Shown here piece after piece: positions 11,793 to 38,935 of a DNA stretch of 64,000 nt (position 1 is its first letter; each line of letters begins with the position of its first letter). A program made the position numbers and the translations under genes. The notes beneath the pieces were generated by a model. That model searched no databases and had not been told where the DNA came from. It was given only the letters and a program-made list of their open reading frames with translations. Origin of the DNA: a virus; IMG/VR virus record IMGVR_UViG_3300024520_005201, positions 5,698 through 69,697 of that record. One strand, given 5' to 3'.

Positions 11793-11797
11793 ACCAA

Positions 11798-14824: not shown

Positions 14825-14842
14825 AGAGTGCCTCCTATATTC

Positions 14843-14852: not shown

Positions 14853-14856
14853 AAAT

Positions 14857-16184: not shown

Positions 16185-16230
16185 CTCTTCAAGACCGAAG
16201 GGTTTCCCTGTACAGGGATTATTTCCTCAT

Positions 16231-17211
16231 TTACCCATTTGAATTTCTCTCAAGGTCAGATGCTACCATCTCTGTAATAAGAGATTTAAAATCATACTTG
16301 GGCTTCCACCCCAGAACTTCTCTTGCTTTTGTGCTATCTCCTAGTAATAAATCAACCTCTGCTGGTCTCATAAATTTAGGGTCTTGGACAACCCATTCTC
16401 GCCAATCCAAATCAACATGACCAAATGCAACATCTAATAAATCCATAATGCTATGAGTCTCTCCTGTGGAGATAACATAATCATCTGGCTTATCGTGCTG
16501 CAACATGAGCCAGGCAGCATACATATAGTCCTTCGCGTGACCCCAATCCCTCTTGCTATCAAGATTACCTAAGCTTAACTTAGTACTCTGGTCAAAGCAC
16601 AGCCTGGCAGCAGCATGAGTAATCTTTCTAGTCACAAACTCTATTCCTCTGCGAGGGCTTTCATGATTAAATAAAATTCCATTACAGGTAAACATATCAT
16701 AGGATTCTCTGTAATTTTTTGTTGACCAGAACCCCGCTAACTTAGCTACTCCATATGGACTACGAGGATAAAATGGGGTAGTCTCTTTCTGCGGAGTCTC
16801 CTGAACTTTTCCAAATAACTCTGATGTACTTGCTTGGTAGAACTTGCAATCTGGTTTAATATTTCTGATAGCCTCTAGACAATTTACTACGCCTCCGGCA
16901 TTTACTCTCATCGTATGATATGGTTCATCCCAAGAAACTCTAACATGACTTTGTGCTGCAAGATTATAAAACTCATCTGGCATATAAGTCGAAACAACTC
17001 TACTAATACTACCGGAGTCTGTCACATCTCCATTCTCTATTTTAAGATTTGGATTATGATATAGGTGTTTAATTCTCCAGTTAGCAGCATTGCTACTGCT
17101 CCTGCGATTTATACCTACCACAGTATATCCTTTATCCAGTAGTATTTCTGCCAAATATGAACCACTTTGGCCTCTGACACCAGTTATTACAGCTACCTTA
17201 CCCATTTGCAA
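16231..17211 (-). CDS. gmd: GDP-mannose 4,6-dehydratase
   Basis: ITGVRGQSGSYLA, YNLAAQSHV, YQASTSELFG, PRSPYGVAK, GILFNHESPRRG, RDWGHAKDY; likely start MGKV at 17205. Confidence 0.97.
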   Translation of the reverse strand: MQMGKVAVITGVRGQSGSYLAEILLDKGYTVVGINRRSSSNAANWRIKHLYHNPNLKIENGDVTDSGSISRVVSTYMPDEFYNLAAQSHVRVSWDEPYHTMRVNAGGVVNCLEAIRNIKPDCKFYQASTSELFGKVQETPQKETTPFYPRSPYGVAKLAGFWSTKNYRESYDMFTCNGILFNHESPRRGIEFVTRKITHAAARLCFDQSTKLSLGNLDSKRDWGHAKDYMYAAWLMLQHDKPDDYVISTGETHSIMDLLDVAFGHVDLDWREWVVQDPKFMRPAEVDLLLGDSTKAREVLGWKPKYDFKSLITEMVASDLERNSNG

Positions 17212-17488
17212 CCTCTGCTAAAATATCTCCGTGACAATCCAGTGGACTACACCAACAGCCAAGAATCTTTCCTTTTAATTCTGCCTTAGCAGTCTCTATC
17301 AACTCAGGTTGTTTCATCAACCATTCTCTATATCTATTAACTGCTATTTCTCTTGAAGCAACTATTATTTGAGCCGCGGTTCCTTCTTTGTGAGTAAAAC
17401 GATTACCCCATTTAGAAGGTCTACCTATATAGATATCAAACGGTTCCTTTTTGCAATGCACGACCATCTTACGCCCTGCCATAATCAT
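17198..17488 (-). CDS. DUF4326-like protein
   Basis: DIYIGRPSKWGN...LKGKILGCWCSPLDCHGDIL. Confidence 0.85.
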   Translation of the reverse strand: MIMAGRKMVVHCKKEPFDIYIGRPSKWGNRFTHKEGTAAQIIVASREIAVNRYREWLMKQPELIETAKAELKGKILGCWCSPLDCHGDILAEVANG

Positions 17489-17873
17489 CCTCTAGCCTTA
17501 CTACATCATCCAACTCTGTGGTAGACACTTCTACGAAGAGCGCATCGTTTGCACCAGCTCCTATTCTATGAACCATTTCGCGCCCAATAAACTTAGGCAC
17601 CATATTTTGTGGCCTAAAGAATCCAAGTCTAGTATCTCTTTTTTTGTGCTCAATATAGCCGTCTCCTGCTACTAAGAACAATGTTTCAATCTTTTCGACA
17701 TGATACTGTAGGCTGAGTCTATGTCCTGCCTTCACAAATATTTCCTTGACTACATAAAAATCATTATTTTCCATGATTCTTTCGTGACCCCAGGGTTTTT
17801 TAATTATCCCAGGAGGCGATTCTTCGTAAGCTTTCTGTGGTTCCTGCCCATTCATAAACAAATACTTCCTCAC
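17469..17873 (-). CDS. cupin, mannose-6-phosphate isomerase type II C-terminal-like
   Basis: KPWG, LSLQYH, HRI, EVST..LDDVVRLEDDYGR; start uncertain. Confidence 0.85.
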   Translation of the reverse strand: MRKYLFMNGQEPQKAYEESPPGIIKKPWGHERIMENNDFYVVKEIFVKAGHRLSLQYHVEKIETLFLVAGDGYIEHKKRDTRLGFFRPQNMVPKFIGREMVHRIGAGANDALFVEVSTTELDDVVRLEDDYGRA

Positions 17874-18150
17874 CAGGAGAATCTTCTCCTATCTTATATG
17901 CCATCGTTTTTTCTCTAGTATAAAGAATTGGAACTCCTTCGTACCTATCTAATTTATCTAAGTCTCTACTGGTCACATCTATTAGTTGGCCAGTTACTTC
18001 GCTATCTGTAGGTACTCTAAAAAGTTTAACGCATGGAAACTGTCCGACATCCCACATGCGAGCATCTATAAAATGAGTATCCTTATCTTCTAACTTAAGA
18101 GTTCCATAGACAAACAACTTATAGAGTCTTCTCTTCTCCAGTTTCTCCAT
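17800..18150 (-). CDS. gamma-glutamylcyclotransferase (AIG2-like)
   Basis: LFVYGTLK...LDRYEG...Y.R motifs. Confidence 0.85.
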   Translation of the reverse strand: MEKLEKRRLYKLFVYGTLKLEDKDTHFIDARMWDVGQFPCVKLFRVPTDSEVTGQLIDVTSRDLDKLDRYEGVPILYTREKTMAYKIGEDSPGEEVFVYEWAGTTESLRRIASWDN

Positions 18151-18439
18151 CTTCTTTTTCCTCTTCTACCTTGATAGTTTCTTTTCTTTCTTTTAGTTTA
18201 TGCTGTAATGTGGGTGGTGCAGATTTTGGCCTGGCCACTATCTTTGCCCCCAGTACATCTGCTACATGTTGTGGAGAAACTCTTACAGGCTTCTTTACCA
18301 ACATAGCTTCATACTCGGTTAGTTTACCTAGGTGTATCTTAAGACCATCTCTATTCAACCCAAGCTTCTTCTCGTAAGCCTTGAGTGGTGCGTTAGATTT
18401 TACTAGCGCTACAAATTCTTTAATCCATTCTAAATTCAT
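18119..18439 (-). CDS. hypothetical protein
   Basis: 106-aa ORF, ATGA-coupled to the HAD gene. Confidence 0.65.
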   Translation of the reverse strand: MNLEWIKEFVALVKSNAPLKAYEKKLGLNRDGLKIHLGKLTEYEAMLVKKPVRVSPQHVADVLGAKIVARPKSAPPTLQHKLKERKETIKVEEEKEDGETGEEKTL

Positions 18440-19074
18440 ATTCTAATCTCCAAAGATTTTAATTGTAATTCAATCAAGTCGACATTTAATTTATCGAAAC
18501 TTTTAATTCTAAGAGGTCTACACATAGCATTTACGGCCGACATAATACCTATCGCTGAATTGTCTATAGCAAGACACTCCTTAGAAAAGACGCCTAATTT
18601 GTATGAAGCCTGTAGGTATGGTGCAGGGTGTGGCTTCAGTTTTCCATTTGTATCTGCACTAGTTATTACTATATCAAAGAATGGCAAAAGACCAGCGGAT
18701 GTGAGCATTTCAATTGCGGGGCCCCTAGACGAGTTAGTTGCTACGGCAATCTTGCCACCCGTATATGTGTTCGCAAAATCTACAGCTTCAATGACTCTAT
18801 CGATTGGTTTACATCTTGACCATATTATTTCTTTAGTATACTTTTGTTTTAGTTTAGCTAACATTCTACGAAGATTTGGTTTACCTGGTGCCCTGCCTAC
18901 CTTCGATAACTTCTCTATTCTATCTACAGTAGAGAATCCTTTTCTGTATACGTCAGGAGACACTTCGTAACCATAATCACACATTGCTCTCGTAAATGCT
19001 TCTTCGTGCCAGCCTTCTCCGTCTACCAGGACGCCATCTAGGTCAAAAATAATTGCTTTAATTCCACTATCCAT
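18436..19074 (-). CDS. HAD-family phosphatase (beta-PGM-like)
   Basis: FDLDGVLVD, ATNS, KPHPAPY motifs. Confidence 0.9.
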   Translation of the reverse strand: MDSGIKAIIFDLDGVLVDGEGWHEEAFTRAMCDYGYEVSPDVYRKGFSTVDRIEKLSKVGRAPGKPNLRRMLAKLKQKYTKEIIWSRCKPIDRVIEAVDFANTYTGGKIAVATNSSRGPAIEMLTSAGLLPFFDIVITSADTNGKLKPHPAPYLQASYKLGVFSKECLAIDNSAIGIMSAVNAMCRPLRIKSFDKLNVDLIELQLKSLEIRI

Positions 19075-20023
19075 TCAAAACCTCCTCAATTAGTTTCTCC
19101 CAGGAAGCCTTGCAGCTATCCCATGTGAACGGTGTAGTAAGCATGTATTCTCTGGGTGAAAAGGAACTCTCTAACACTTGCCAAATAGCCTTGGAGAAGT
19201 TCTCTACAGATAGTTCTCCATCTATTCTAACTCCCGCAGATTCATTAAAGTAATCAGCAAACCAGCCTGTGTTTGTTCCTATAACTGGGACGTCACATAG
19301 GGCTGCCTCCACTGTAGCAAGGTGCAGCGTCTCTAGTGAAGAGCACATGATACAAAAGTCAGCTTCATTATATAATCTAAGCATTCCTTGTTCATTGACT
19401 CCGCCTGGATAATTTCTGACGTTGGGTAGGTTTATTTGGTTGCGAGCCTTGGATACATAAATGAAATCTAAATTACTATTCTCTTTTGCTACTTGCTCGA
19501 ATAGTCTGGTGTTCTTTGTCTGGTTATAGTCTCCTACAAAGATGCCTGTTCTCTTGAATCTCTGGAATATATCATTGGCTGGCCTGAAGTTTGCCATTGG
19601 CTTGAATAAGTTCTCGTTTACTCCAATGGGAATAACCCTTGACTTGTTAGACACAACCTCTAGCATGGACATTTCTGTATTTTTTAGGAATTCACTTCTG
19701 GTATATTCACTATTAAACACAACAAAATCTGAAGACATTACTGTGTTGTATTGCTTCTCATCGTAACCATACAGGTCCTGCACAAGAACTATCTGTTTGC
19801 AGTCTCTTTCAATAGGTCTGAAGAATGTTCCATTCCTTATTATTAAATCACATTCTCCTGGGTCATTCTCTATTGTTTCGGCTAGCTTATTAAATGGTGT
19901 GCCAGTCTTATCGACTGTGTCATCTATCTCAAGCAGTGAATGCCAAAATGTTTTAGTCCCTGGTATACAGGTGAGGTAATCGTTAACTATCCAGGTGTTC
20001 ATTATTAATCCAAACTGAATCAT
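19067..20023 (-). CDS. glycosyltransferase, GT4-like
   Basis: FNSEYT, IPIGVNENLF, YNEAD, ET..L..VEAALCDVPVI; likely start MNTW. Confidence 0.85.
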   Translation of the reverse strand: MIQFGLIMNTWIVNDYLTCIPGTKTFWHSLLEIDDTVDKTGTPFNKLAETIENDPGECDLIIRNGTFFRPIERDCKQIVLVQDLYGYDEKQYNTVMSSDFVVFNSEYTRSEFLKNTEMSMLEVVSNKSRVIPIGVNENLFKPMANFRPANDIFQRFKRTGIFVGDYNQTKNTRLFEQVAKENSNLDFIYVSKARNQINLPNVRNYPGGVNEQGMLRLYNEADFCIMCSSLETLHLATVEAALCDVPVIGTNTGWFADYFNESAGVRIDGELSVENFSKAIWQVLESSFSPREYMLTTPFTWDSCKASWEKLIEEVLNG

Positions 20024-20612
20024 ATTGAGTTCCGTGCTGTATTCTAGCTCCCGCTAATTTTAGCATCGTAAACCCTCGGGTATTTAAGAAATTACAAACT
20101 CCATCGTGCAACATTTTCTGGCCAGAAAAGTATGGAACAGTCTCGGTCTCAATGTGCATTATCTTAACTGTATCTAGTAGGTCTCCCATACCTTCAAAGA
20201 CATCATAAGTCGCCCCTTCTACATCTATCTTCATCATATCAATTGATTCATCTATTATATGCAGGAACTCAGAGTCTAATCTATAACAGGGAACAGTTCT
20301 TTGTTCTGTGCCATAGATAGAACCTCTATCATAGATACTGTGAATGCCATTAGTTATCTTGACGTGGAAGGTTGTTTCTCCAGTGTAGGATGAGATAACT
20401 TTATTAAGCCACGCAATACCACTAGGTGTATGTGCCTCCCAATTTTCCTTTAGCCCCTCATAGGCTACTACAAAAGCATCAGGAAAACATTGTTTGAAGT
20501 AAACAGAATCAGCGCCATCAAGCGCACCAACTTCTACTATAACTTTAATCTCATGCTCTTGAAAATTATCTTTCACAAGCTGAACAAACTCTGGCATAAT
20601 TATACTAGCCAT
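19983..20612 (-). CDS. FkbM-family SAM methyltransferase
   Basis: EVGALDG, RLD, MKIDVEGA motifs. Confidence 0.9.
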   Translation of the reverse strand: MASIIMPEFVQLVKDNFQEHEIKVIVEVGALDGADSVYFKQCFPDAFVVAYEGLKENWEAHTPSGIAWLNKVISSYTGETTFHVKITNGIHSIYDRGSIYGTEQRTVPCYRLDSEFLHIIDESIDMMKIDVEGATYDVFEGMGDLLDTVKIMHIETETVPYFSGQKMLHDGVCNFLNTRGFTMLKLAGARIQHGTQYDSVWINNEHLDS

Positions 20613-21397
20613 TAGAAACTTTCTCCAAAATGATGGCCGCCGAGAATTTGTATCTTGGGTTTATATATAATTGTCTGAAGAGTAGAAGTGTATACATCCC
20701 AATTCATATGTAGGGTTTCATCTTCTGACCACGGGTATTTGAGAAGACTTAACTTAAAGAACTTCTTATCTAATTCTAGGTCGAACCATGCCTGGGTAAT
20801 GCCATGCTCAATTTCTCTCCCGTGTGAATCTTCAACGCATTTATCTATGCACATCTTAAGTAGGTCTGTTCTCATGAAGGTAGCTGGAAAATCTATGAAG
20901 AAATTATTTCTATATTGCTCGTGCCTTTTCATAGCGCACCATTCATTGGATAGCATTGTGTATTGGGTTCTGTCGTTAAATACCTTATCTATTTCTAGTA
21001 GGTGCTGGGGGCTATAGCCGCCGACATTTAACCCTAATATTCCACAAGTTCTATCTCCAAAATCAACAGCTAATGCTTTTGTAAAATCTTCCATTGTAGG
21101 TAGCCATCTGAGAGTTAGGTCGTCTTCACAATATAGGACCCATTCAGAGCTGACCTTATCTAGTGCCTGACGCAGAGACACTACCATTCCTCTGCGCTTC
21201 TCGACAAAGTAATCGAACTTGTATTTCTTGAATGCCTCCTTGTCCTGTTCCGTTACTCCCTCTCCAAAGTCATCTATGGAAATCAACCTATGTGACAGTA
21301 GGTTAGTGGGTGCTTTATTATCAATGCTTTCCAAGGCTTCCAATAGGTTTCTCTTCCTACTTACAATGGTCGTCCCTACTACTATGCAGTCAATCAT
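20612..21397 (-). CDS. glycosyltransferase, GT2/GT-A-like
   Basis: ISIDDF and VLYCEDD (DxD-type) motifs; cluster context. Confidence 0.7.
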   Translation of the reverse strand: MIDCIVVGTTIVSRKRNLLEALESIDNKAPTNLLSHRLISIDDFGEGVTEQDKEAFKKYKFDYFVEKRRGMVVSLRQALDKVSSEWVLYCEDDLTLRWLPTMEDFTKALAVDFGDRTCGILGLNVGGYSPQHLLEIDKVFNDRTQYTMLSNEWCAMKRHEQYRNNFFIDFPATFMRTDLLKMCIDKCVEDSHGREIEHGITQAWFDLELDKKFFKLSLLKYPWSEDETLHMNWDVYTSTLQTIIYKPKIQILGGHHFGESF

Positions 21398-21992
21398 TAG
21401 TTTTCTCTTTGGTAATAGCTAGGACATTCCAAGTTATATGTTCTCCGCGATGCTCGAACTGACTATCTCCGACAACAAATCCTCCGAAGCTTTCAATCCA
21501 ATCTATCACTACACTTTTGTCTCTCATTATTAAATAGCCGCTATCCTCATAGCTCTTGCCTGAGCCCCTTAGTCCTGTAGAGTTTGCTGTTTGGAGAGAG
21601 AACTTACCTCCAGGCTTTAGAACTCTGACGCCCTGCTCTACCAATAGCTTTGCCTCTTCATCATTACAATGCTGCAAGACTAGGTTACATATAACTAAAT
21701 CCATTATGTCAGATGGCACGTTGCTAAAGTCTTTTGTTAGATATGTTTTCGAGAAATCTTTAACCTTCTCTAGGGCTTCTGCGACAATGTCTACTGTGTA
21801 TAGCTCCTTGCAGGAGTCTGATATTTGTTTGGTTGCTGTGCCTGTCCCGATGCCAATCTCTAAGACAACAGAGTCCGAGTTTAATTCAGCCATAGAACTA
21901 TGGTATAGCCTATAGTGATTAATATCGTAGCCACTTAACCAGCCTAGATGATTTGTCCTGTGGTTATCTTCCCAAAATTTATTAAGGCGCAT
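21390..21992 (-). CDS. class I SAM-dependent methyltransferase
   Basis: VLEIGIGTG, DLVICNLVLQH, RVLKPGG. Confidence 0.9.
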   Translation of the reverse strand: MRLNKFWEDNHRTNHLGWLSGYDINHYRLYHSSMAELNSDSVVLEIGIGTGTATKQISDSCKELYTVDIVAEALEKVKDFSKTYLTKDFSNVPSDIMDLVICNLVLQHCNDEEAKLLVEQGVRVLKPGGKFSLQTANSTGLRGSGKSYEDSGYLIMRDKSVVIDWIESFGGFVVGDSQFEHRGEHITWNVLAITKEKTND

Positions 21993-22732
21993 TATAGGTC
22001 TCCTGCTTCTGCACTTTCTCCCCTTTGGAAGTGATAAGCAATACTGTCGCCCACCATTAGATGCTGCATACCAAACTTTTTTGCAAGAATAGCATACGTT
22101 ATTTTATCTCCGGGCCAATTACCTTTATTTTTTTGCCAACCGCCAGCATCCCTAAGTCTTTGAGTGTTAAATAAGCTGGGCATATATGCGCCCTTGTTTC
22201 CCCAGGCATGGGGTGTAATCTGTACTCTAGCAAACTCCTCAAATTCTTTTTTCTTAAACGTAACTAGTGTCTGTCCAAAGTCTTTAGAAATCAGACCGGG
22301 TAGACTTGGCATTCTTCCACTCTCTACTAATCTACTAGTTGGAATGTATGTTAGAAGGTCATATTTCGCTAGTGCATCAAGCCATCCATCGGTAAACGCC
22401 ATATCACTATTGACAAAACAAATTGCTTCTGTCTCACACTCTAGAAGACATCTGTTCCAGGCATTATATACATTTTGAATCCACCAGTCATCTGGGTTTG
22501 CGTTTTTATGAACAACTATTTTTATCTTAGGGTCATAGTTGTGAGATAGATAAGATGACCATCTGCTAGCTGCAATAAGAACTTCTTTAGTTGCATCATT
22601 ACATACTATTAAATATTGAACATCATGATTTTCGGAATGGTGTTCAAGGAGAGATTCCATTACAAAATCTAGATAGGCAGGGCTTTTATATATGAGTGTG
22701 GCTACTGTGATTTTCATTGAAAAGTGTTCCAA
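21992..22732 (-). CDS. glycosyltransferase, GT2/GT-A-like
   Basis: YNAWN, CFVNSDM, AYHFQRGE. Confidence 0.75.
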   Translation of the reverse strand: MEHFSMKITVATLIYKSPAYLDFVMESLLEHHSENHDVQYLIVCNDATKEVLIAASRWSSYLSHNYDPKIKIVVHKNANPDDWWIQNVYNAWNRCLLECETEAICFVNSDMAFTDGWLDALAKYDLLTYIPTSRLVESGRMPSLPGLISKDFGQTLVTFKKKEFEEFARVQITPHAWGNKGAYMPSLFNTQRLRDAGGWQKNKGNWPGDKITYAILAKKFGMQHLMVGDSIAYHFQRGESAEAGDL

Positions 22733-23904
22733 TTACTAGCTATAAAAGAATCTGTTGTAGGATGTGGTCTGTAGAAGTTATGTTTTAATCTTTGAGCAAG
22801 GTCTGTTACAATAATTTCTGCAGCATTGCCGTCACCTAGCCAGAAGGTTGGATTCTTTTTGCTATGTGTGACCTTGTATGCGGCTGCCCCAATTTTATTA
22901 ATTGACATCTCTGTGATACCGCTATTAAATGTTTCTGGTCTTTCTGTGCTTCTTCTAGTAACAACACACGGAGTACCTAGAATAGCACTTGTTTCTTGAT
23001 TGGTGCCGGAATCTGTGAACTCAATCATTGCATTCTTCTCAAGAGCAATGAAGTCAAAAAATCCAATAGGCTTAATGAATAGGAAATTCCTTAACAGCTC
23101 TTTACTAAGAAGATTAATTTCTCCATCTTTAGCTTTTTTTTCTCCTTCAGCATCAAATACTTTCTGTAGTCTAGGCATTACTGGAAGTATTACTGGAACA
23201 TGGTTCTCTTGTGCCCATCTTTGAACCTGTCTAAGTATCGAAGCACACACCATTGGATTGTCAACATGCTCAGACCTATGCAAGGTCATTACTGCATATT
23301 TCTGAGGTGAAACACTAAAGGAATCTAAGACTTCCCTTTCTCTACTTTTAATCTCTTCCATATGCTCATTGAGAACATCAACAATAGTATTTCCAGTTAC
23401 TACAATCTTAGTAGGACAGATTCCTTCCTGAACAAGCTTACATTTGTAATCATGCTGATAGGTATATAGGACGTCACTTACTCTATCTATAATAACCCTG
23501 TTGCGCTCCTCTGGCATTCTCCAGTCATGACTGCGCATCCCCGCCTCAATATGAACAATAGGAATCCCCATCTTAAGAGGAGTTATGCAGCCAATAACTG
23601 CATTAGCATCTCCCAAGAACATAACTACATCTGGCTTTGCTATCTGTATAACTGATTCTAGTTGACTAATTAACTTGGCATGTTGTTGTGGATGTGAACC
23701 CGCTTTTGTATCCAGATTAAATTGTGGCTCTGGAATACCAAGCTCTTTAAAAAAGACCCCCTTTAAATTCTCATCATAATGCTGACCTGTATAAACAAAT
23801 TGCAGCTTAATTTCTGGATGAGCTTCTAGTTTTTTAAGTATAAGGCTAGACCTAATAAAGTCTGGTCTAATACCAAACACTGTCATCACATTATACATTT
23901 GCAT
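22714..23904 (-). CDS. wecB: UDP-N-acetylhexosamine 2-epimerase (WecB/FnlC type)
   Basis: GIRPDFIR, TGQHYD, LGD, HIEAGMRS, PEERNR, TDSGTNQE, TERPE. Confidence 0.92.
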   Translation of the reverse strand: MQMYNVMTVFGIRPDFIRSSLILKKLEAHPEIKLQFVYTGQHYDENLKGVFFKELGIPEPQFNLDTKAGSHPQQHAKLISQLESVIQIAKPDVVMFLGDANAVIGCITPLKMGIPIVHIEAGMRSHDWRMPEERNRVIIDRVSDVLYTYQHDYKCKLVQEGICPTKIVVTGNTIVDVLNEHMEEIKSREREVLDSFSVSPQKYAVMTLHRSEHVDNPMVCASILRQVQRWAQENHVPVILPVMPRLQKVFDAEGEKKAKDGEINLLSKELLRNFLFIKPIGFFDFIALEKNAMIEFTDSGTNQETSAILGTPCVVTRRSTERPETFNSGITEMSINKIGAAAYKVTHSKKNPTFWLGDGNAAEIIVTDLAQRLKHNFYRPHPTTDSFIASNWNTFQ

Positions 23905-25155: not shown

Positions 25156-25164
25156 GCTGGCTCC

Positions 25165-27191: not shown

Positions 27192-27316
27192 TTACCTCTA
27201 CTCCTCAACCATGCTCTACTACTATAAGAGTTTACTTTTGCTTGCTGGTCACTTTTAGCTTGAACAATTTTAACAGGACCACCACAATAGCAGACCTTTT
27301 CATAGAGTGGCATCAT
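27188..27316 (-). CDS. small hypothetical protein (42 aa, not in ORF track)
   Basis: MMPLYEKVCYCGG...RSRGK fills the gap exactly and is ATGA-coupled to the HNH-epimerase. Confidence 0.5.
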   Translation of the reverse strand: MMPLYEKVCYCGGPVKIVQAKSDQQAKVNSYSSRAWLRSRGK

Positions 27317-32021: not shown

Positions 32022-32755
32022 TTACTTTTCCCTCCAACCAGATAGTATCCACCGCTATACGTGGCACCTAGTTTTTTTAGAAAAGCCTGGCATTCTGAGT
32101 CTGGTCTCTTAACAGACAAAGACCATTGTTCGGTGTTCTCTATGCCTATTGTTCTGATGGTAGCCTGCATCAGTCCTCTTGTTAGTCTCATCCTCTGCCC
32201 TATTTGAATTGCTTCTATTATAGGAGTGAAGGCGTATGCCTTTGGATTTCTTTCAGCATACTCTGCTGCCTCTGTAAAACCACCATCTGTAATTAGTATT
32301 ATACTGAGGCTTCTCTTCATCACCCTGTTGTGGTTAAGGTTATTAACTTTTCTAAGCGCGGAGGAGATAGCTATTTTACCCCATGAATATGTCCCAGTAT
32401 TATTCCTAATCCACTTCTTTGCTTTTGCGAACTCTTGTTCTCCTTGCGGTCCACCCGCATTAGTCCAGTCTCTAAATCTTTCATCTCCTTTATCATGAAA
32501 GGTATAGATACAAAAATAGAGTTCGTCTGATGCTATCCTAGATGTTGTTTCTAGCCAGGCCTTCTCGAACCTAGCACTTATATCGTCGCTTAAATTAATT
32601 GAGCTAGATGCATCTATTACGAATACAATATTGGGAGACAGACTAAATGGCTTAGGCGCAACTACTTCTGTATAAGGAACTTCACTCTGGGCTAATGTAG
32701 TCGTTAGCATGAATAACACTATGACTGCAGCTAATATTTTATTTTTCATTTGCAA
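32018..32755 (-). CDS. secreted vWA-domain protein
   Basis: N-terminal signal peptide; VIDASSS and ITDGG. Confidence 0.75.
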   Translation of the reverse strand: MQMKNKILAAVIVLFMLTTTLAQSEVPYTEVVAPKPFSLSPNIVFVIDASSSINLSDDISARFEKAWLETTSRIASDELYFCIYTFHDKGDERFRDWTNAGGPQGEQEFAKAKKWIRNNTGTYSWGKIAISSALRKVNNLNHNRVMKRSLSIILITDGGFTEAAEYAERNPKAYAFTPIIEAIQIGQRMRLTRGLMQATIRTIGIENTEQWSLSVKRPDSECQAFLKKLGATYSGGYYLVGGKSK

Positions 32756-33200
32756 TCATTTTGCTTTTTAGAATCTGTTCTACAAAAGCCTCGAACGTAT
32801 ATGCAACATCATTCATATACTTCGCCTTGGTCGCCTGGCCGTAGCTTACACCTCGGACTCTAAAATTAATTGAGCTTTTCCCCGTGGGAACTACAAATGC
32901 TATGTCTCTTTGATTGAATGCTACTAGAGCAAATCCATCAATATCATCTTTCTCGTACATAGAAGCTTTTGAGCGATTCTTTTTTAAACTAAATTCATAT
33001 ATAAGCTTGCCAGTCTTTGATGCTTTTCGCGGCAGACGGATTGTCTTAACTTGAATCTTGATTAGATTATCATTAACGTCAGCTACCAGGTCGTACTTAA
33101 CCTTGGGTGGCGTTGTTAGACAAACGTGTCCTAGTGCCGTAATCTCTGCGGCTACTAAGTATTCTCCGGCCTGCCCCATAAAGTGTGCATCGTGTTGCAT
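32739..33200 (-). CDS. PD-(D/E)XK endonuclease (I-Ssp6803I-like homing family)
   Basis: G.AGEY..AE, YDLV, KIQVKT, Y..DDID.F. Confidence 0.8.
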   Translation of the reverse strand: MQHDAHFMGQAGEYLVAAEITALGHVCLTTPPKVKYDLVADVNDNLIKIQVKTIRLPRKASKTGKLIYEFSLKKNRSKASMYEKDDIDGFALVAFNQRDIAFVVPTGKSSINFRVRGVSYGQATKAKYMNDVAYTFEAFVEQILKSKMIANEK

Positions 33201-33400
33201 TAGTTTTCCTCAAATAGATTGACATCAAACAGTATATTAAAATCATCAAGACACTCCCAAGACAATAACATTACTGTACAGCCTCGTTTTCCTTTTACAA
33301 AGATAGATGCTCCGTATTCTGGTAAGTATCCAGTTATTGGAAACTCGTCATCTTTTTTGAAAATATCCCAATCTTTTTTTAGTATCGCTATTCCATGCAT
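33200..33400 (-). CDS. hypothetical protein
   Basis: 66-aa ORF with 1-nt stop/start overlaps on both sides. Confidence 0.6.
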   Translation of the reverse strand: MHGIAILKKDWDIFKKDDEFPITGYLPEYGASIFVKGKRGCTVMLLSWECLDDFNILFDVNLFEEN

Positions 33401-33978
33401 TATTGTTTCTCAAAAATAAAGACGGCCCTAACCCGATGGTTAGTTGACCTGCTTATTGCTATTTCTCCAACTCTTTTAAATTCTTCTTTACGATACATTG
33501 GCAGAACCATATCCATCCAGCACAAGTAGCCCCCCTTACGTAAAACCTTGTAGGCTTCCTTGACTACCTTGTTTCGATTAACCATCGGGTTGCCGTAGCG
33601 AAGAGCGTCAGATTCTGTATAAGGAGGGTCTGCTAATATTAGGTCATAGTAATCATTCTTTACGTGGTCGCTAAGTTCTTCTGCATTACAACAGACGTCT
33701 GGCTTTAGGTCGGGATTGATATCAATCTTAATACCTCTGTCTAACTTACCTAGGCTTCCACTAAATAAGTTCATGGTTCGGCAGTTTGCTACGTCTGGAA
33801 ATAGAGAATGAATGCGCTTGAGATAAGAGGGTGGGTAGGCTCCATGATAGCCGCTACCCTTGTAGTTATTTCCTATGTTCCATACGCCTAGAATCCAACC
33901 CTTATCTGACCACATGGAGGGATACTTAGGAAAGGTTCCGTTATATAGCTTAACTCTTTCGTCTAGAGAATACTTCAT
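33400..33978 (-). CDS. putative amino (N6-A/N4-C) DNA methyltransferase
   Basis: YHGAYP, LFSGS, DLILADPPY, VLRKGG; start placed at the ATGA overlap at 33978. Confidence 0.7.
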   Translation of the reverse strand: MKYSLDERVKLYNGTFPKYPSMWSDKGWILGVWNIGNNYKGSGYHGAYPPSYLKRIHSLFPDVANCRTMNLFSGSLGKLDRGIKIDINPDLKPDVCCNAEELSDHVKNDYYDLILADPPYTESDALRYGNPMVNRNKVVKEAYKVLRKGGYLCWMDMVLPMYRKEEFKRVGEIAISRSTNHRVRAVFIFEKQ

Positions 33979-35069
33979 ACTTCTACCGTATTGTAGAACG
34001 GTTCCATTCTTTTTGTTCCCCAGAAATCTTCCATCCATACTGCTATGTTTGGTAGCCTATCCTTAGAATAAATCTTATCCTCTTTCCAGTTCTTAATCGG
34101 TTGGTCATTTTCATTATGACAAAGCTCTGGATAATCTTTCATATCGCAATAGTTATCTGTGCAAAATATCTGAGCATAATATCTACTTCTTATAGTGCAC
34201 GCCATCTCCTGTCTCTGCGGGTGCTCATCTAATATTTTAGGCTGAGGGCCATTGTAAAATAGAATCTCGTTAAGGTCTTCTTTGAAGTTAACGAACTCAT
34301 CAAGCTTAATATCGAACTCAGTTGCTGCACTTCCTCCGCGACCTTCATACTTTGCTAGTTCACTACGATAGAACTCTGCCTTCATCTTGTGGAACTCATG
34401 CCCTTTAGCATGACCATAGTGGTAGATATAAAGGCCAGGCATTGTATACCTAAGTTGCTGCATCTCTGGAGTAAAGTAGGAGCATTTACCATTGGGTAAT
34501 GTCGCAACAGGATGAGTGTAGTATCTCATGCCAGGAACATATTTAATAATTCTCTGGTGTTGCGGTTGCCACTCTGGGTGTGGTGCCCTGACGTGAAAGA
34601 AATCTCTGTAGAAATGTAGGAACGTCGGTATAATTTCTGACGCTGTGGGATGCATATGTATGGCCTGTCTGACTCTATTTACGTCACCCTCCATATAGAA
34701 CTCATCTGCGTCTACTATGAACAGCCATTCACCTGGAGACGCTGCATCAATAAAGATTTGCTTCTGTTCTTCCAGCGATTTAAACGACCTGTTAAGCGTA
34801 TATAGTTGAATCTTATTGTCAGGGTCAGGAAAACTCTTAATAATCTCCAGAGTGCTATCAGTGCTAGAACCATCAGGTGTAGCTCCTGGACGCCCCTCAA
34901 CAGCACCTTCAACCACCCGAATAATATCGAATTCATCGTAGTTGTTTTTGAGGACGTATTCAATCCAGTCTTCTTCATTATGACATCCAATACATTTAAC
35001 GAGTTTAATTTTATTAAGGTCGTAGTTGACCTCACTCATAATTTTATCCATCTGTTTCATGCTGGACAA
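33975..35069 (-). CDS. glycosyltransferase, GT2-like
   Basis: HNEE, STDST, IVDADEFY, YHYG. Confidence 0.85.
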   Translation of the reverse strand: MSSMKQMDKIMSEVNYDLNKIKLVKCIGCHNEEDWIEYVLKNNYDEFDIIRVVEGAVEGRPGATPDGSSTDSTLEIIKSFPDPDNKIQLYTLNRSFKSLEEQKQIFIDAASPGEWLFIVDADEFYMEGDVNRVRQAIHMHPTASEIIPTFLHFYRDFFHVRAPHPEWQPQHQRIIKYVPGMRYYTHPVATLPNGKCSYFTPEMQQLRYTMPGLYIYHYGHAKGHEFHKMKAEFYRSELAKYEGRGGSAATEFDIKLDEFVNFKEDLNEILFYNGPQPKILDEHPQRQEMACTIRSRYYAQIFCTDNYCDMKDYPELCHNENDQPIKNWKEDKIYSKDRLPNIAVWMEDFWGTKRMEPFYNTVEV

Positions 35070-36151
35070 ACTTCTTTTTCTACACAGGACATAACACTTT
35101 TAATTGTATTATCCCAGGACAATTGCTTCGCTGTTTCCATGCCTGCGACATTTAGTCCTAGTTGTCCTGCTTGTTTTTTATTATGAACAGTCCTCATATG
35201 GTCTGCTAATTGCTCTGTGCTAAAGTTTGCCCATTCTCCTTGGCCGTTAAACCACTTGCCATCGTTAGCTGATTCCATTCCTGTAACGTCTAGCTTAAGT
35301 GAATTCTCGTTAGTTAAGAATTGGGTATGACCAGAGTAATCTGTAGCAATGATGTGTGCTCCGCACGCCATCAGTTCTGGAATTTCTAGGTTCCAGCCTT
35401 CAGCGTGACTTGGAAATACGCCACAGTCTACGTGATTAAAAATCTTTCTAATCTGGTCGTGGGTCTCTAGCCTTGGAAAGAACTTAATATGACCGACCAT
35501 TGGAGTGCTGGCGTATTTCTTTTTCCACTCAATGTTTTCGTGCCCAATGAATGGGTTGTCATTAATCATCCATAGTTCTACGTTATCACCAGGTTGGAAC
35601 GCAAGACAGAAGGCTGCGAGTAGTTCCTCGTGGCCCTTTCTTTTTTCCCATTTACCTATGTTGATAAAAATTGTGCTATCTTTCTGCCAGTAGGCCCTGT
35701 TGCTTCTTTCGTTTTCATCTACAAAAAACTTGGCCGGGTCTACACCTAGGGGGGCAACGGTTACGGGGACATCTATATTATTTTCTTCAATGACATCCTT
35801 GGCCCAGTCAGAACACACAACTAATTGGTCAACATTGCTCAGGCTATGCTTCTCTCTATCATTGAATTTATTTAGTTCAAAGATAGGCCAGCCGATTCTC
35901 TGTCCCCTTCCTGGGAACATATCTAGCTGATACTGATGCCATATTCTTAGAGATGGTGCATTGCTATTATACGATTGTGCATTAAGAATGGAACTCTTGA
36001 TTGCATTTTGTATTCCTGCATCTGGCCATTCTGGATTTCCAATAGGAAAGTAAGATACCTTATGGCCGTTAGCCACTAGAGACTTAAAAACATTACAACC
36101 AACTACACCATAACCCAGCGTATTGATTGGCGCTACTAAATTAAAATCCAT
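35057..36151 (-). CDS. glycosyltransferase, GT4
   Basis: GYG, GKWEKRKG, PSHAEGWNL..E.MACG. Confidence 0.92.
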   Translation of the reverse strand: MDFNLVAPINTLGYGVVGCNVFKSLVANGHKVSYFPIGNPEWPDAGIQNAIKSSILNAQSYNSNAPSLRIWHQYQLDMFPGRGQRIGWPIFELNKFNDREKHSLSNVDQLVVCSDWAKDVIEENNIDVPVTVAPLGVDPAKFFVDENERSNRAYWQKDSTIFINIGKWEKRKGHEELLAAFCLAFQPGDNVELWMINDNPFIGHENIEWKKKYASTPMVGHIKFFPRLETHDQIRKIFNHVDCGVFPSHAEGWNLEIPELMACGAHIIATDYSGHTQFLTNENSLKLDVTGMESANDGKWFNGQGEWANFSTEQLADHMRTVHNKKQAGQLGLNVAGMETAKQLSWDNTIKSVMSCVEKEVCPA

Positions 36152-37301
36152 TTGCCAACTTCCATTTCTTGTAGTAATGAAGTATGGTATCCTTCATGTG
36201 CTTTCCTACCTTGCCATATGAAAAGTCATCGACTCTTTCTTTGCAAAGTTTAATTCTATTTTCCCACTTGGAGTTCTTACTATCAAGCTGACAATAATTC
36301 CACTCATGGTATGCATCTCTCATCGCGCTTCGTAGGCTAGAGATGTCTGGTTCTGCCCAGTTATCTTCTCCCGTATACATAAAGCTATGTGGGTGTGACA
36401 TATCGAAGCATGGACTAAGTGTGTAGTCCACTAGCCAACCTGTATCCTTATTGATAAATTCTGTTGGCCCACCCCAGCCTACTGCTATAGGTGGAACCCC
36501 GAAGCCCATGGCATCAAAGTGGGGAATTCCCCAGCCCTCGCCTCTACTAGGAAGAACGTAGCAATCAGATGTTGCATATAATCTTTTGATTGCTTCTTCT
36601 GAGAGAATCTCATGCACCAAATATACTTGAGGATATGAATTGATTCTCAATAGTTCCTTCATTTTATTAATTTGGTTTATCATTTTCTGCTTATGCTCTT
36701 CTGTATCTTGTGAACCAAAATAAACTTTCAGAATAAGCATTACATTATCTGTGCTTCTGAACTCACTGAAGTATGCTTTGAGTAGCGAGTCTAGTCCCTT
36801 CTTTTTACTAATTTGACAAATCGAAAGAAACTTAAACTTCCCTGTAGAGTTGGGAATTTGGAATGGTGCCAGGTCTTCATACTTTACTTTATCAAATGTA
36901 TGAGGAACTTTTACTATAGGTATTGTAACGCCAGCTATTCTAGCTGCTTTTATATTCTCATCACAGGGAACTAGGGCTAGGTCCATGGTATTAATTTGGT
37001 TTACCCATTCCTGAGGAACTCTATCGGTCTCCCATGCAAAATAATTTACGTTAAAGACATCTTTTCTTTTAGTAGTTTCATTAGGGGTGGTGTGCTGGAT
37101 AACTATATCTACATCCTGTAGGCTTCTGTTCTCTAATTCCTTCTCTCTATCTGAAAAGTTATGATTACCTCCATCATAATGGAGTGACCTTGTAACTAAA
37201 TTACAGTCTGCGCTATCTAATGCTTTGACATAATCCCTAGCTGCTGTAGCATATCCACTAAAGTCCTTGAGTGGCGCGACATATAAAATTTTAGGACTCA
37301 T
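36141..37301 (-). CDS. glycosyltransferase, GT4
   Basis: SGYA, WETD, KKG, PSRGEGWGIP..DAM. Confidence 0.92.
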   Translation of the reverse strand: MSPKILYVAPLKDFSGYATAARDYVKALDSADCNLVTRSLHYDGGNHNFSDREKELENRSLQDVDIVIQHTTPNETTKRKDVFNVNYFAWETDRVPQEWVNQINTMDLALVPCDENIKAARIAGVTIPIVKVPHTFDKVKYEDLAPFQIPNSTGKFKFLSICQISKKKGLDSLLKAYFSEFRSTDNVMLILKVYFGSQDTEEHKQKMINQINKMKELLRINSYPQVYLVHEILSEEAIKRLYATSDCYVLPSRGEGWGIPHFDAMGFGVPPIAVGWGGPTEFINKDTGWLVDYTLSPCFDMSHPHSFMYTGEDNWAEPDISSLRSAMRDAYHEWNYCQLDSKNSKWENRIKLCKERVDDFSYGKVGKHMKDTILHYYKKWKLANGF

Positions 37302-38935
37302 ACTAAAACTCCTGGTAGCCCTATACTTTCTATGGATAGAGCTTTGTTAGGGTCATAGCCTCTAACCTCAAGGGACTTATTCCATCTAATAGTCTCAAAC
37401 TTATTATGAGTTTGATTCTCTCCTCTAAAAAATGCCTCAACAGACTCTCTACTATTCCCAGACGCCAAAGAGTTCATCCAATTTGTAAAACCTTGCTTGT
37501 CTGGTTCTCTATGTAGTATGTTTCTATAACAGGCTAGCACAAATTGTTCGTTGTTTAATCCAGCGGGGAGCGCTATATTATTTACGATTTTGAATTCTGG
37601 ACGTCTATTCCACGTTTTACTTCTATCATGCATATCTAATTCATCAAAGATTCTTTCAAATTCATTTGCTGTGGAATCCCAATTATGAAGAGTGAGGGCA
37701 CACTCTCTAGCGCGCTTCCCCATTTTCTTACGCTTCTTAGAATTAGTTAACAAATCCTTGAAGCCAGCAACCATGCTATCTACATCTGGTAATGAACGCA
37801 CAGCCATAGTTTCGGCCTCCGTATAGAAGGTTCCGATATCTATTGCTATACCTCCGCCATTTTCCACATGGTCTTCCATGGCAGAATAATTAGAGTAAAG
37901 CCCGGGGACTCCACAAGCTTTAGCTTCTACAATAGGTAATGCCCATCCTTCGCAAATAGCTGGTTGGACATAGATATCCATCATATTGAAAATTTCTGAT
38001 AGTTCTTCTGTTGAAACTCCGCTGTGTGTGTTTGGCATGTGAGCTTTTATTTCTCCACAGAAAACACACTTTCCATTTCCACTCTTCCCCTCACTAGGAA
38101 TAAACCACGAAAAGAAGTTACGACTACAGGCGTCGCATCTGTACGTAAAAATAACGTGTCTATTAAGACCGTTTCTTTGAATAAGCTCAGGAATATTCCA
38201 ACCAACATCCGGCCAGCTAGTATGACATAACAAAACAGATTTTTTAATTTCTTTAATATGTCCATAATCCTTGCGGAGTTTTGCATAAGCTTGGAACAAC
38301 TCTGGGAAACACTTCCTCTTTTGGTTTCTCATCACAGTTCCAATAATTTTAAGCCCCTTCTGAAGACCCCACTCAGACCTTACTTCGAATTTATCTTTTG
38401 GACTAAATACATCTAGGTCTACACCTGGGCTAGTGACGCTGGTCACATTTACCCCTTGGCCTTCTAGAATTCTTTTGCCAAACCTGCTATAGGTAGTCAC
38501 TATATCTGACTTCTTAAAGGTATCTTCTATCCATTCTTTTCTTTGTGGGGCGCTATCTACGGTAGGAGTAATTACTGTTTTAAAGTTTGCTCTGAATTGA
38601 GACTTAAGAATATGCTCAACCATCCATGGGTCTCTAGCATCAAATACAATATCTGGCTGGAAGTCTGCAACAACAGCATCAAATTTATATACTCCAAATT
38701 GATTTACCGGTTGGCTCTTATAAACCTGAGCCTCCTGTTGGTTCTTGGGTAGATTCCCATAGAACTTCCACGGTAATTTCAAAGCACTCTCATCTGCCGA
38801 GTTTCCATAGCTACCGAACTCAGCTATTATATACTTATCCGTATCATAAATTCTTCTTATGATTTCTTTATTATATGTAGCAAATCCGGTAGAGAGCCAA
38901 CTAGACTCTCCACAAAATAGAATTCTTTTCTTCAT
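37298..38935 (-). CDS. glycosyltransferase, GT4, with Zn-ribbon insert and C-terminal DUF4214-like domain
   Basis: STGF, RNQKRK, EGWALPIVEAKACG; CDAC...CVFC insert; FV..CYRNIL.REPD..GF..W C-terminus. Confidence 0.9.
   Translation of the reverse strand: MKKRILFCGESSWLSTGFATYNKEIIRRIYDTDKYIIAEFGSYGNSADESALKLPWKFYGNLPKNQQEAQVYKSQPVNQFGVYKFDAVVADFQPDIVFDARDPWMVEHILKSQFRANFKTVITPTVDSAPQRKEWIEDTFKKSDIVTTYSRFGKRILEGQGVNVTSVTSPGVDLDVFSPKDKFEVRSEWGLQKGLKIIGTVMRNQKRKCFPELFQAYAKLRKDYGHIKEIKKSVLLCHTSWPDVGWNIPELIQRNGLNRHVIFTYRCDACSRNFFSWFIPSEGKSGNGKCVFCGEIKAHMPNTHSGVSTEELSEIFNMMDIYVQPAICEGWALPIVEAKACGVPGLYSNYSAMEDHVENGGGIAIDIGTFYTEAETMAVRSLPDVDSMVAGFKDLLTNSKKRKKMGKRARECALTLHNWDSTANEFERIFDELDMHDRSKTWNRRPEFKIVNNIALPAGLNNEQFVLACYRNILHREPDKQGFTNWMNSLASGNSRESVEAFFRGENQTHNKFETIRWNKSLEVRGYDPNKALSIESIGLPGVLV

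Follow-up and report, generated by a model that had tools for sequence, protein, structure and literature searches.

Some viruses build glycans with enzymes of their own. The giant viruses (chloroviruses, Mimivirus and the Megavirinae) combine virus-encoded nucleotide-sugar enzymes with soluble cytoplasmic glycosyltransferases (GTs), and among the Megavirinae the sugar genes vary by clade. In mycobacteriophages, whose virion glycosylation was reportedly described by Freeman et al. in 2023 (Cell Host Microbe), phage GTs occur together with methyltransferases; the accessible parts of these reports propose or show that they decorate virion proteins, with about two transferases (for example in Maravista) and with sugars attached at the C-terminal ends of the capsid and tail-tube subunits. 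Here we describe a gene island at positions 16,231 to 38,935 of a 64,000-nucleotide stretch of viral DNA, hereafter the window, which corresponds to bases 5698-69697 of the 69,697-bp virus record IMGVR_UViG_3300024520_005201. We conclude with high confidence that the island is a genuine phage locus for glycan synthesis, and its predicted gene content supports well a mode of glycan assembly that would be soluble, membrane-independent and phage-autonomous.

Set beside these systems, the island resembles that of the giant viruses in that nucleotide-sugar enzymes, Gmd and WecB equivalogs among them, are encoded with soluble GTs, and in that its core transferase, GT4d, finds its best solved-structure match in the chlorovirus NY-2A protein B736L (PDB 3oy2). 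It differs in that the carriers are bacterial viruses of ~127-177 kb, in that the identity to 3oy2 is 18-19% with a fold tied with those of ordinary GT4 enzymes, and in that the system is known here from genes alone. With the mycobacteriophages it has in common that phage-encoded GTs occur alongside methyltransferases. Compared with them, there are 9-11 transferases accompanied by sugar-nucleotide pathways, the capsid protein of the relatives carries no C-terminal extension and the locus lies outside the structural module. The cyanomyoviruses P-SSM2, S-SSM7, S-SCSM1 and S-SCSM2R are likewise large lytic phages with many GTs and nucleotide-sugar enzymes whose target is not known. The available text on S-SCSM2R counts 13 glycosyltransferases among 22 cell-wall synthesis genes (PMC12801897), so that the enzyme set, which the original prediction (made from the letters of the window) called unusually large, is indeed large for a phage but not unique; S-SCSM2R also has an exporter-type gene, pgaA, in that text, whereas the window has no such gene. 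For P-SSM2 and S-SSM7, the part of the description at hand reports large 'lipopolysaccharide (LPS)' clusters that expand the genomes, gives their function as unknown and considers 'stuffer DNA' (PMC3037559). In contrast to these phages, to which it is unrelated, the present clade has an anchored locus at a fixed position and a core GT that is conserved and, in relatives, interrupted by inteins. DNA hypermodification clusters (T4 glucosyl-hydroxymethylcytosine; methyltransferase/5mYOX/GT clusters; 5-hydroxycytosine arabinosylation) also place soluble GT-A and GT-B enzymes among DNA-metabolism genes, but no base-activating enzymes were found here, and the count of transferases and tailoring enzymes is several-fold above that of the mono- to trisaccharide systems in the published excerpts compared. 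Bacterial O-antigen and capsule loci and GtrABC modules share enzyme families with the island and, like it, a variable centre between conserved flanks, but the island comes without an initiating phosphoglycosyl transferase, Wzx, Wzy or ligase, ABC-2 permease, GtrA or integrase. One preprint, in its accessible portion, counts the glycosyltransferases of huge phages as envelope-associated. What sets the present case apart is the combination: an unrelated lineage, an anchored locus whose core is conserved while its centre is swapped, a core enzyme interrupted by inteins, and complete genomes in which no export or DNA-base-activation genes were found.

The island has no nucleotide match in 50,697 deposited phage records (megablast), and DnaE, TerL, the capsid protein and GT4d have only remote relatives there, at no more than 36% identity (maxima of 26% for TerL and 36% for DnaE). 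Two close relatives were found in IMG/VR, G001 (97.7 kb, ~80% protein identity) and G002 (167 kb, 91% complete, 45-60%), and both carry the island at the same place. We surveyed the clade in 16 long records, 9 of them at least 90% complete, from phages of ~127-177 kb with a GC content of 35-48%; five of the 16 are listed by IMG/VR with direct terminal repeats, which measure 114-127 bp in G003, G005, G010 and G014. The window's own record is ~41% complete (CheckV), of a full phage of ~170 kb. Its phage origin was correctly recognised in the original prediction. A literature search retrieved no description of the clade or the locus, which supplementary files may nevertheless list among their contigs; judged from the available parts of their descriptions, the Dishui Lake phages (PMC10611076) and the 'moraphages' (PMC12619734) belong to other lineages.

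Pfam scans of the 29 minus-strand open reading frames (ORFs) of at least 80 aa within 16231-38935 assigned a family (E<=0.01) to 27 of them (Table 1). Four predicted GT-B enzymes exceed the PF00534 cut-off and five predicted GT-A enzymes exceed a curated cut-off, while two GT-A candidates, GT2a and GT2b, lie below the PF00535 cut-off of 23.3 bits. The island is thus predicted to encode nine solid and two candidate GTs, in agreement with the earlier count of about 11, and, as had also been noted, all island genes are co-oriented on the minus strand. GT2f has homologues at 49-75% identity in G001-G003, and its sub-threshold NCBIfam neighbours are TuaG, WcaA, PglI and Eps enzymes. GT2e is 42% identical to its G001 counterpart while the neighbouring genes are 74-80% identical. 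Neither GT2a nor GT2b found a match among PDB sequences (phmmer), and aligning them with GT2f (hhalign) gave a probability of ~1%, from shallow alignments; the Atlas model of GT2a matches GT2 clusters (TM 0.62-0.66), and the AlphaFold2 (AF2) model of GT2b, built from 4 sequences, was too poor for a structure search (pLDDT 45.6). Every one of the 16 long records contains 3-5 matches to PF00534 and 2-7 to PF00535, the window's record having the most GT-A matches. A Kyte-Doolittle scan (19-aa window, mean >=1.6) flagged no hydrophobic segment in any island GT, as expected from the earlier claim that none has an obvious transmembrane segment.

The enzymes that would supply these transferases form two groups: a short-chain dehydrogenase/reductase (SDR), an FdtA/RmlC-type cupin and an RmlD-like reductase adjoin WecB, and a mannose-phosphate-isomerase-type cupin and a HAD enzyme adjoin Gmd. 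Gmd and WecB pass NCBIfam equivalog cut-offs and the others pass Pfam cut-offs, as do the two S-adenosylmethionine (SAM) methyltransferases, so this part of the original prediction holds. Homologues of Gmd in G002, G003, G005, G010 and G014 are 46-66% identical. The HAD enzyme matches the beta-phosphoglucomutase family, but below that family's cut-off, and the reductase reaches 56.7 bits with NCBIfam rmlD, far under the cut-off, and so is not an RmlD equivalog. Among PDB sequences the FdtA/RmlC-type cupin matches QdtA (8e-6) and the C-terminus of Cap5F (5e-3); the SDR, which is joined in frame to an HNH endonuclease, best matches 6vo6 (E 1.7e-33), and its G001 homologue is a 322-aa protein without the HNH domain. 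A UDP-L-FucNAc pathway of the CapE/F/G type was considered for 22714-27191 and dropped, since the SDR does not resemble FnlA/CapE and the match of the cupin to Cap5F reaches only E 5e-3, and for the same reasons we do not name the sugar product of the SDR-cupin-reductase-WecB block. O-methylation of sugars by the FkbM-family and Methyltransf_11 enzymes here, and by a TylF-type enzyme in G003, is plausible.

We then considered the genes with which an envelope pathway would be primed and exported. The window's record gave no Pfam match for Bac_transf, Wzx, WecA/MraY, Wzy_C, ABC2_membrane or GtrA. Priming transferases of families PF02397 and PF00953 were found in none of the 16 records, with controls positive in 10 of 14 and 12 of 14 genomes, respectively; the Wzx flippase (PF01943), the ABC-2 permease (PF01061) and GtrA (PF04138) were each absent from all 16 in searches whose positive controls worked. 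For the polymerase/ligase family Wzy_C (PF04932) there was no match above cut-off in the 16 records, the one match of 14.4 bits containing 2 stop codons; the positive controls of this search worked as well. The result is the same in the nine records that are at least 90% complete (0/9), and in seven records (G000-G002 and four complete relatives) no ORF has four or more hydrophobic segments apart from a giant ORF of 2711 aa. These empty searches bear out the earlier statement that export and priming genes are missing, and, as they cover 16 related records including nine that are at least 90% complete, the flippase or polymerase genes elsewhere in the genome that had been named as grounds for abandoning the virion interpretation did not turn up in complete relatives. 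Of the components of an envelope-polysaccharide locus, only the cluster of nucleotide-sugar enzymes with GT2 and GT4 transferases is present; priming and export enzymes are not. A GtrABC seroconversion module is not recognisable either, for both GtrA and the marks of a temperate lifestyle are lacking: tyrosine integrase (Phage_integrase) was found in 0 of 10 records and serine recombinase (Resolvase) in 0 of 5, so lysogenic seroconversion is unlikely. IMG/VR labels G001 a provirus; we dropped this interpretation, as no integrase was found and a 497-aa ORF in the unique end has no PDB match. Nor was a base-activating enzyme of DNA hypermodification detected, ThyA homologues (PF00303) and C5 cytosine methylases (PF00145) each being found in 0 of 16 records; Tet_JBP (PF12851) was found in 0 of 3, in a search made without a positive control.

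The locus occupies a fixed position. GT4d is present in all 16 long records, and a DUF559-like gene lies on the same strand 8.0-35.3 kb downstream of it in 14 of them (23.3 kb here). The recurrent gene order is RecA, DnaB, primase, exonuclease, DnaE, (SSB, sigma-like), GT4d, GT4c, (GT2g), followed by variable genes. Neighbours were counted by tblastn in the best 80 of at least 575 GT4d loci: both parts of DnaE stand beside GT4d in 80/80, GT4c is found in 72, GT2g in 28 (median identity 45%) and GT4b in 58, the last at a median identity of 23% at which cross-hits to paralogues are possible. Within the window's sub-clade, one shared end consists of GT4d/c/b, GT2g/f/c, the SDR-cupin-reductase-WecB block and the peptidase, and the other of Gmd, the cupin and the HAD enzyme, while the centre differs. 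Even G001, despite its ~80% identity, lacks three island genes of the window and has two others. In G002 the extra genes encode a nucleotidyltransferase, a sugar dehydrogenase, a further SDR and GT4, a LAGLIDADG protein and, unexpectedly, isocitrate lyase with malate synthase (L041:14522-17221). Those of G003 encode a nucleotidyltransferase, a sugar dehydrogenase, two more methyltransferases, one of them of the TylF type, a glutamine-synthetase-like protein (L149:3878-4864) and a sulfotransferase-like ORF whose 27.4 bits stand at the cut-off. The G003 glycan may be sulfated, as a putative membrane-tethered APS kinase adjoins the sulfotransferase-like ORF: a 246-aa ORF (71725-72465, L149) has, by eye, two to three N-terminal hydrophobic segments and an APS-kinase-like P-loop domain. 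The distant relatives G005, G010 and G014 share only GT4d, GT4c, sometimes GT2g, and Gmd, which lies elsewhere in two of them. These comparisons indicate that the proximal enzymes (GT4d, GT4c and often GT2g) are inherited with the core genome and that the centre of the locus turns over.

GT4d, the proximal anchor, is predicted to be a GT-B enzyme of the GT4 type, with two Rossmann domains and a C-terminal Glycos_transf_1 domain (AF2 model, pLDDT 88.9). Its cysteines C267, C270, C290 and C293 are invariant in 23 sequences, as are the catalytic motifs. Foldseek retrieved 3oy2 as the closest solved structure (E 7.8e-21); VIA-align scored it at Z 34.4 against 33.7 and 33.2 for ordinary GT4 enzymes, GT4 structures spanning Z 29-34, and because of this tie the fold does not inform on the type of acceptor. 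There are 1736 GT4d homologues at E<=1e-5, the best 120 being full-length, 50-100% identical and located on contigs of up to 183 kb, and a profile scan placed relatives on at least 575 IMG/VR contigs. Inteins or homing-endonuclease domains interrupt 3 of the 120 homologues of near-normal length and, among 26 'longer' ones, 20 (P0045, P0070, P0077, P0121, P0124, P0129-P0146); the remaining six longer ones are fusions to a GT9 heptosyltransferase domain. BLAST break points put the insertions at three invariant motifs, near residues 97-107, near residue 204, and at 328-331 in C-E-G-W; five homologues have two insertions each. Inteins typically persist at conserved sites of essential genes. We therefore take their persistence at invariant motifs as evidence that GT4d is probably an indispensable, catalytically active core gene and not dispensable cargo. 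Consistent with core inheritance, the identity of GT4d between relatives rises and falls with the identities of DnaE and the major capsid protein.

Outside the clade, tblastn against the 50,697 phage records gave 6 weak matches to GT4d (21-25% identity), none in a T4-like cyanophage. The only cultured phages with a relative, at 21-24% identity, are Synechococcus phage S-CBS4, where the gene lies between portal and head protease, and Tetrasphaera phage TJE1, where it lies just upstream of terminase; in both it is accompanied by a second GT or a methyltransferase. We regard this head-gene setting as a lead, a hint toward a virion target. Among species-representative genomes, a search with the single GT4d protein found nothing, and an alignment profile then gave 12 loci in metagenome-assembled genomes (MAGs) labelled as unrelated phyla, archaea included. 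As DnaE adjoins GT4d in 10 of the 12, these are most simply mis-binned phage contigs, and their labels support no host inference.

How might such a locus work? The sugar-nucleotide enzymes (Gmd, the SDR, cupin, reductase and 2-epimerase, the mannose-phosphate cupin and the HAD enzyme) would remodel host nucleotide sugars; the conserved proximal enzymes would initiate a glycan on an acceptor supplied by the phage, most probably one or more virion proteins; and the variable enzymes would extend and decorate it with 6-deoxy sugars and O-methyl groups here, and with sulfate and uronic acid in relatives. The members of the clade would then differ in the 'glycotypes' of their particles. Such a mode of working may be likened to the host-independent glycosylation of chloroviruses, mimiviruses and some mycobacteriophages. 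We favour an acceptor that travels with the phage over a host-dependent one because the proximal enzymes are conserved and vertically inherited across genomes of 35-48% GC, and the variable distal enzymes would fit a surface-exposed product. Our preference for virion protein(s) as the target is tentative and falls somewhat short of an even chance. A more elaborate version is possible but doubtful: the locus would be a virion 'glycotype' locus, the counterpart of a bacterial O-antigen locus, by which a widespread clade of large lytic phages builds an essential glycan coat wholly within the cytoplasm and without a lipid carrier, the vertically inherited core GT4d/GT4c/GT2g starting the glycan on a conserved phage protein and a rapidly exchanged cassette setting its outer sugars, methylation and sulfation. 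Related phages would then differ in the chemistry of their surfaces, in the manner of bacterial serotypes.

Several observations weigh against a virion target. No acceptor protein was found. The capsid proteins of six relatives, 48-75% identical to that of G001, end in a conserved motif without a C-terminal extension, and the recognisable structural genes of G000-G002 contain no Ser/Thr-rich tract. The head genes of the window's phage are absent from its 41%-complete contig. The locus sits amid DNA-metabolism genes (DnaE, SSB and sigma-like gene upstream; DUF559, HD and MT-A70 genes downstream), and the structural module of G001 is more than 50 kb away from it. The island also encodes a membrane-anchored protease and VWA proteins, and the chlorovirus structure 3oy2 is tied, to within ~1 Z unit, with GT4 enzymes that act on small molecules or lipids, BshA among them. 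Moreover, the non-initiating glycosyltransferases of O-antigen and capsule pathways are soluble or peripheral too, so that the lack of membrane segments is compatible with a lipid-linked route through the host's WecA, Wzx and ligase.

That route is the core of the first alternative, in which the phage remodels a glycan of the host envelope during the lytic phase (O-antigen, capsule, a teichoic-acid-like polymer or a protein-glycosylation donor), acting on undecaprenyl-linked intermediates with the priming enzyme, flippase and ligase of the host; such remodelling might serve to block superinfection or to prevent the adsorption of progeny to cells already infected and to debris. The gene content is typical of envelope-polysaccharide loci, down to the neighbours of GT2f listed above, the hypervariable interval between conserved flanks recalls bacterial O-antigen loci, and published cyanophage clusters have been interpreted, in the portions accessible to us, as cell-wall or LPS genes (PMC12801897; PMC3037559). 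The membrane-anchored protease in the island would also be at home in such a process, and, since the fibre-like genes of the phage are far more divergent than its core genes, the genes for receptor binding and those for the glycan may both be following one host surface. Even so, priming transferase, flippase, polymerase/ligase, ABC-2 permease and GtrA are missing from all 16 records, no integrase was found, GT4d is seen solely in phage-like contexts, and proximal GTs that are conserved, inherited with the core and interrupted by inteins better fit an indispensable phage function. We consider remodelling of the envelope unlikely, though it deserves serious attention.

The glycan might instead be built on another soluble acceptor, giving a free or cytoplasmic methylated polysaccharide or modifying a small molecule, a host protein or a phage protein outside the virion. 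The structures that follow 3oy2 in the GT4d comparison agree with this, for these (BshA, MshA, sucrose-phosphate synthase, GlgM and the methylmannose-polysaccharide mannosyltransferase 7qsg) either use small molecules as substrates or produce glycans of the cytoplasm; so do the solubility of the machinery, the presence of methyltransferases, and the metabolic genes in the interval of relatives (isocitrate lyase and malate synthase in G002, the glutamine-synthetase-like gene in G003). Against this stand the number of transferases (9-11) and the variable tailoring, which suggest a surface-exposed heteroglycan under diversifying selection, and it is not obvious what benefit would make such a product an intein-interrupted core function. 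This explanation appears rather unlikely.

Glycosylation of phage DNA as an anti-restriction hypermodification, by some or all of the transferases and above all by GT4d and GT4c beside DnaE, is improbable. It has in its favour that the locus lies inside a DNA-metabolism block, that GT4d contains a Cys4 insertion which is conserved and shows the behaviour of an essential gene, and that, in the sections available, phage GT-A and GT-B kin of LPS enzymes are described to add mono- to trisaccharides to 5-hydroxymethylcytosine (bioRxiv 10.1101/2023.12.21.572611) and phage enzymes to place polyarabinose on 5-hydroxycytosine (PMC13326640); a GT9 heptosyltransferase domain is joined to six GT4d relatives, and the DNA sugars in the published text at hand include heptose. 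The enzymes that make a base reactive are nonetheless absent from the searches reported above (ThyA and C5 cytosine methylase, and Tet_JBP within its uncontrolled search), dUTPase, ThyX and thymidine kinase point to an ordinary dTTP supply, and 9-11 transferases with methylation, and sulfation in G003, far exceed the published DNA glycans with which we could compare them. That the locus is non-functional 'stuffer' cargo, a possibility raised for cyanophage LPS clusters in the part of that report available (PMC3037559), is very improbable given reading frames that are intact and tightly packed, catalytic motifs invariant in 23 GT4d sequences, and a locus kept on at least 575 contigs with inteins persisting at catalytic motifs.

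The features of the island and its two anchors are collected in Table 1.

Table 1. Predicted genes of the glycan-synthesis island and of its flanking anchors, in window coordinates
Feature	Positions	Strand	Supporting match or remark
DUF559-like nuclease-fold protein, conserved distal anchor of the variable interval	14857..15657	-	DUF559 25.2 bits
Gmd, GDP-mannose 4,6-dehydratase, distal end of the locus	16231..17211	-	NCBIfam equivalog TIGR01472 438.5 bits (cut-off 415)
DUF4326 protein	17198..17488	-	85.7 bits
Cupin like the C-terminal mannose-6-phosphate-isomerase domain of ManC	17469..17873	-	PF01050 41.4 bits
GGACT/AIG2-like protein	17800..18150	-	PF06094 49.4 bits
HAD-IA phosphatase/mutase-like enzyme	18436..19074	-	HAD_2 82.7 bits
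GT4a, GT-B	19067..20023	-	PF00534 37.7 bits
FkbM-family SAM methyltransferase	19983..20612	-	PF05050 55.4 bits; TIGR01444 53.1 bits (cut-off 37.7)
GT2a, candidate GT-A, sub-threshold	20612..21397	-	PF00535 20.1 bits (cut-off 23.3)
SAM methyltransferase, Methyltransf_11	21390..21992	-	51.8 bits; no G001 homologue
GT2b, candidate GT-A, sub-threshold	21992..22732	-	PF00535 21.5 bits (cut-off 23.3)
WecB-type non-hydrolysing UDP-GlcNAc 2-epimerase	22714..23904	-	NCBIfam equivalog TIGR00236 221.5 bits (cut-off 210.15)
RmlD-like 4-keto-sugar reductase	23891..24751	-	RmlD_sub_bind 59.5 bits
FdtA/RmlC-type cupin (sugar 3,4-ketoisomerase or epimerase)	24730..25155	-	FdtA 41.9 bits
VWA-domain protein	25165..25782	-	PF00092 27.5 bits; no G001 homologue
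HNH endonuclease joined in frame to SDR nucleotide-sugar epimerase/dehydratase	25779..27191	-	HNH 27.2 bits (residues 96-136); Epimerase 130.8 bits (147-362)
Trypsin-like peptidase	27300..28193	-	Trypsin_2 39.5 bits
GT2c, GT-A	28190..28951	-	PF13704 31.7 bits (cut-off 27.5)
GT2d, GT-A	28948..29850	-	PF00535 42.3 bits
GT2e, GT-A, divergent allele	29850..30641	-	PF00535 30.1 bits
GT2f, GT-A, strongest GT2 match	30634..31425	-	PF00535 105.5 bits
199-aa ORF, no Pfam family	31422..32021	-	Homologue in G001 at 61% identity
VWA-like protein, weak	32018..32755	-	VWA_2 21.5 bits, below cut-off; weakly hydrophobic N-terminus (Kyte-Doolittle 7-25, 1.73)
PD-(D/E)XK endonuclease	32739..33200	-	PDDEXK_5 44.6 bits
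Methyltransferase-like ORF, weak	33400..34038	-	Methyltransf_31 19.2 bits (cut-off 27)
GT2g, GT-A, conserved proximal set	33975..35069	-	PF00535 30.6 bits
GT4b, GT-B	35057..36151	-	PF00534 48.6 bits
GT4c, GT-B, conserved partner of GT4d	36141..37301	-	PF00534 55.0 bits
GT4d, core GT-B, 545 aa, Cys4 insertion and C-terminal DUF4214, proximal anchor	37298..38935	-	PF00534 55.5 bits; DUF4214 37 bits
Sigma-70 region-2-like protein, 118 aa, directly upstream of the locus	38932..39288	-	Pfam Sigma70_r2 26.2 bits (cut-off 24)

Besides the biosynthetic enzymes, the island contains a trypsin-like peptidase with two hydrophobic segments at residues 7-25 (2.47) and 262-280 (2.19) in the Kyte-Doolittle scan, a pattern repeated in G001 and G002; the gene is kept within the island in G001, G002 and G003. 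Homing-type nucleases also occur there, namely the HNH domain fused to the SDR and the PD-(D/E)XK protein in the window and a LAGLIDADG gene in G002 (L144:11243-12097), the PD-(D/E)XK gene being probably a mobile nuclease outside the pathway. When 15000-34999 was scanned for sigma-70 promoters and terminators, promoter-like sites were fewer than expected from shuffled sequence and the terminator-like sites were weak. The window has no tRNA genes. GC content is 0.34-0.42 inside the island and 0.36-0.45 in the flanks, so composition is uniform, and the ORF listing shows a single long run of minus-strand genes from ~64000 down to 1234.

The island had been placed between replication and structural modules, and the upstream half of that placement stands. 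Upstream are found the sigma-70 region-2-like gene, SSB, a DnaE-type polymerase split into two ORFs, thymidine kinase, dUTPase, ThyX, an exonuclease, a MazZ-like diphosphohydrolase, a deoxynucleotidase, primase, DnaB and a RecA/UvsX-like recombinase. Distant relatives have, read by eye, a sigma-like ORF of 201-221 aa at the position of the sigma-like gene. The DnaE halves (40281-41879 and 43549-45444, minus strand) are contiguous parts of PHROG 405 (profile positions 41-622 and 623-1074) separated by four genes, namely dUTPase, two unknowns and thymidine kinase; in distant relatives DnaE is one ORF of 1084-1102 aa. The downstream structural module, on the other hand, is not supported by homology: an MT-A70 methylase, an HD protein and the DUF559-like protein lie directly downstream (12848-15657), and the window's record carries no terminase, portal or capsid gene, although PHROGs recognised such genes in relatives. 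An Atlas search with a 231-aa flank protein returned only unnamed phage clusters.

Beyond the MT-A70, HD and DUF559 genes come small and large proteins without an assigned family, rich in S/T/G and poor in K/E; the 10 ORFs in 1575-12280 match no PHROGs or Pfam family except for one Cupin_6 match at chance level. Two of these proteins have homologues within the structural region of G001, and their composition, together with these homologues, suggests that they may be fibre-like. The fibre-like genes at 1575-5681 are 43-45% identical to those of G001, against ~80% for core genes. In the same region, three neighbouring small proteins of 146, 183 and 136 aa (9411-10840, minus strand), otherwise dissimilar, begin with MGSLN and the next begins with MGS; the shared start may be an N-terminal targeting or processing signal, and homologues exist in G002 and G003. 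By eye we also noted a 198-aa protein with HExxH between fibre-like genes (6054-6650, minus strand) and a 110-aa protein with four copies of a ~15-aa motif (…TGPA.TI..DL…; 1234-1566, minus strand).

At the other side of the window, very large ORFs of 597, 792, 662 and 1183 aa at 54136-63864 (minus strand) match no PHROGs or Pfam family. In relatives, giant ORFs of 3316 aa (G001, 44116-54066), 2220 aa (G002) and 2711 aa (G014) follow the run of large ORFs, between structural and replication genes. The MazZ-like protein, with a dATP/dGTP diphosphohydrolase N-domain (47648-48199), and the HD-domain protein (14243-14824), both on the minus strand, would supply two components of the three-part toolkit for 2-aminoadenine (Z-base); a 2-aminoadenine genome, at which they hint, was dropped, as no homologue of PurZ/adenylosuccinate synthetase was found in G000-G002. 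Like the metabolic genes of G002 and G003, an IMPDH/GMP-reductase gene lies in or near the variable interval; it is present in the window's record outside the window (L145:1735-2763) and in several relatives.

Whatever the target, these phages set aside 8-35 kb, at a single anchored site, for glycan chemistry carried out by soluble enzymes, and inteins at the catalytic motifs of the core transferase, unusual for a glycosyltransferase, are a mark of its indispensability. GT4d is also a ready marker gene for finding and sorting the clade in metagenomes. If the glycan is carried on the particle, complex virion glycosylation would be a core trait, and a diversifying one, in a phage lineage that is abundant in the environment and represented on at least 575 IMG/VR contigs. 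It would then no longer be an oddity of mycobacteriophages and giant eukaryotic viruses, and it would matter for the stability and adsorption of phages, for the stickiness of their particles and for grazing.

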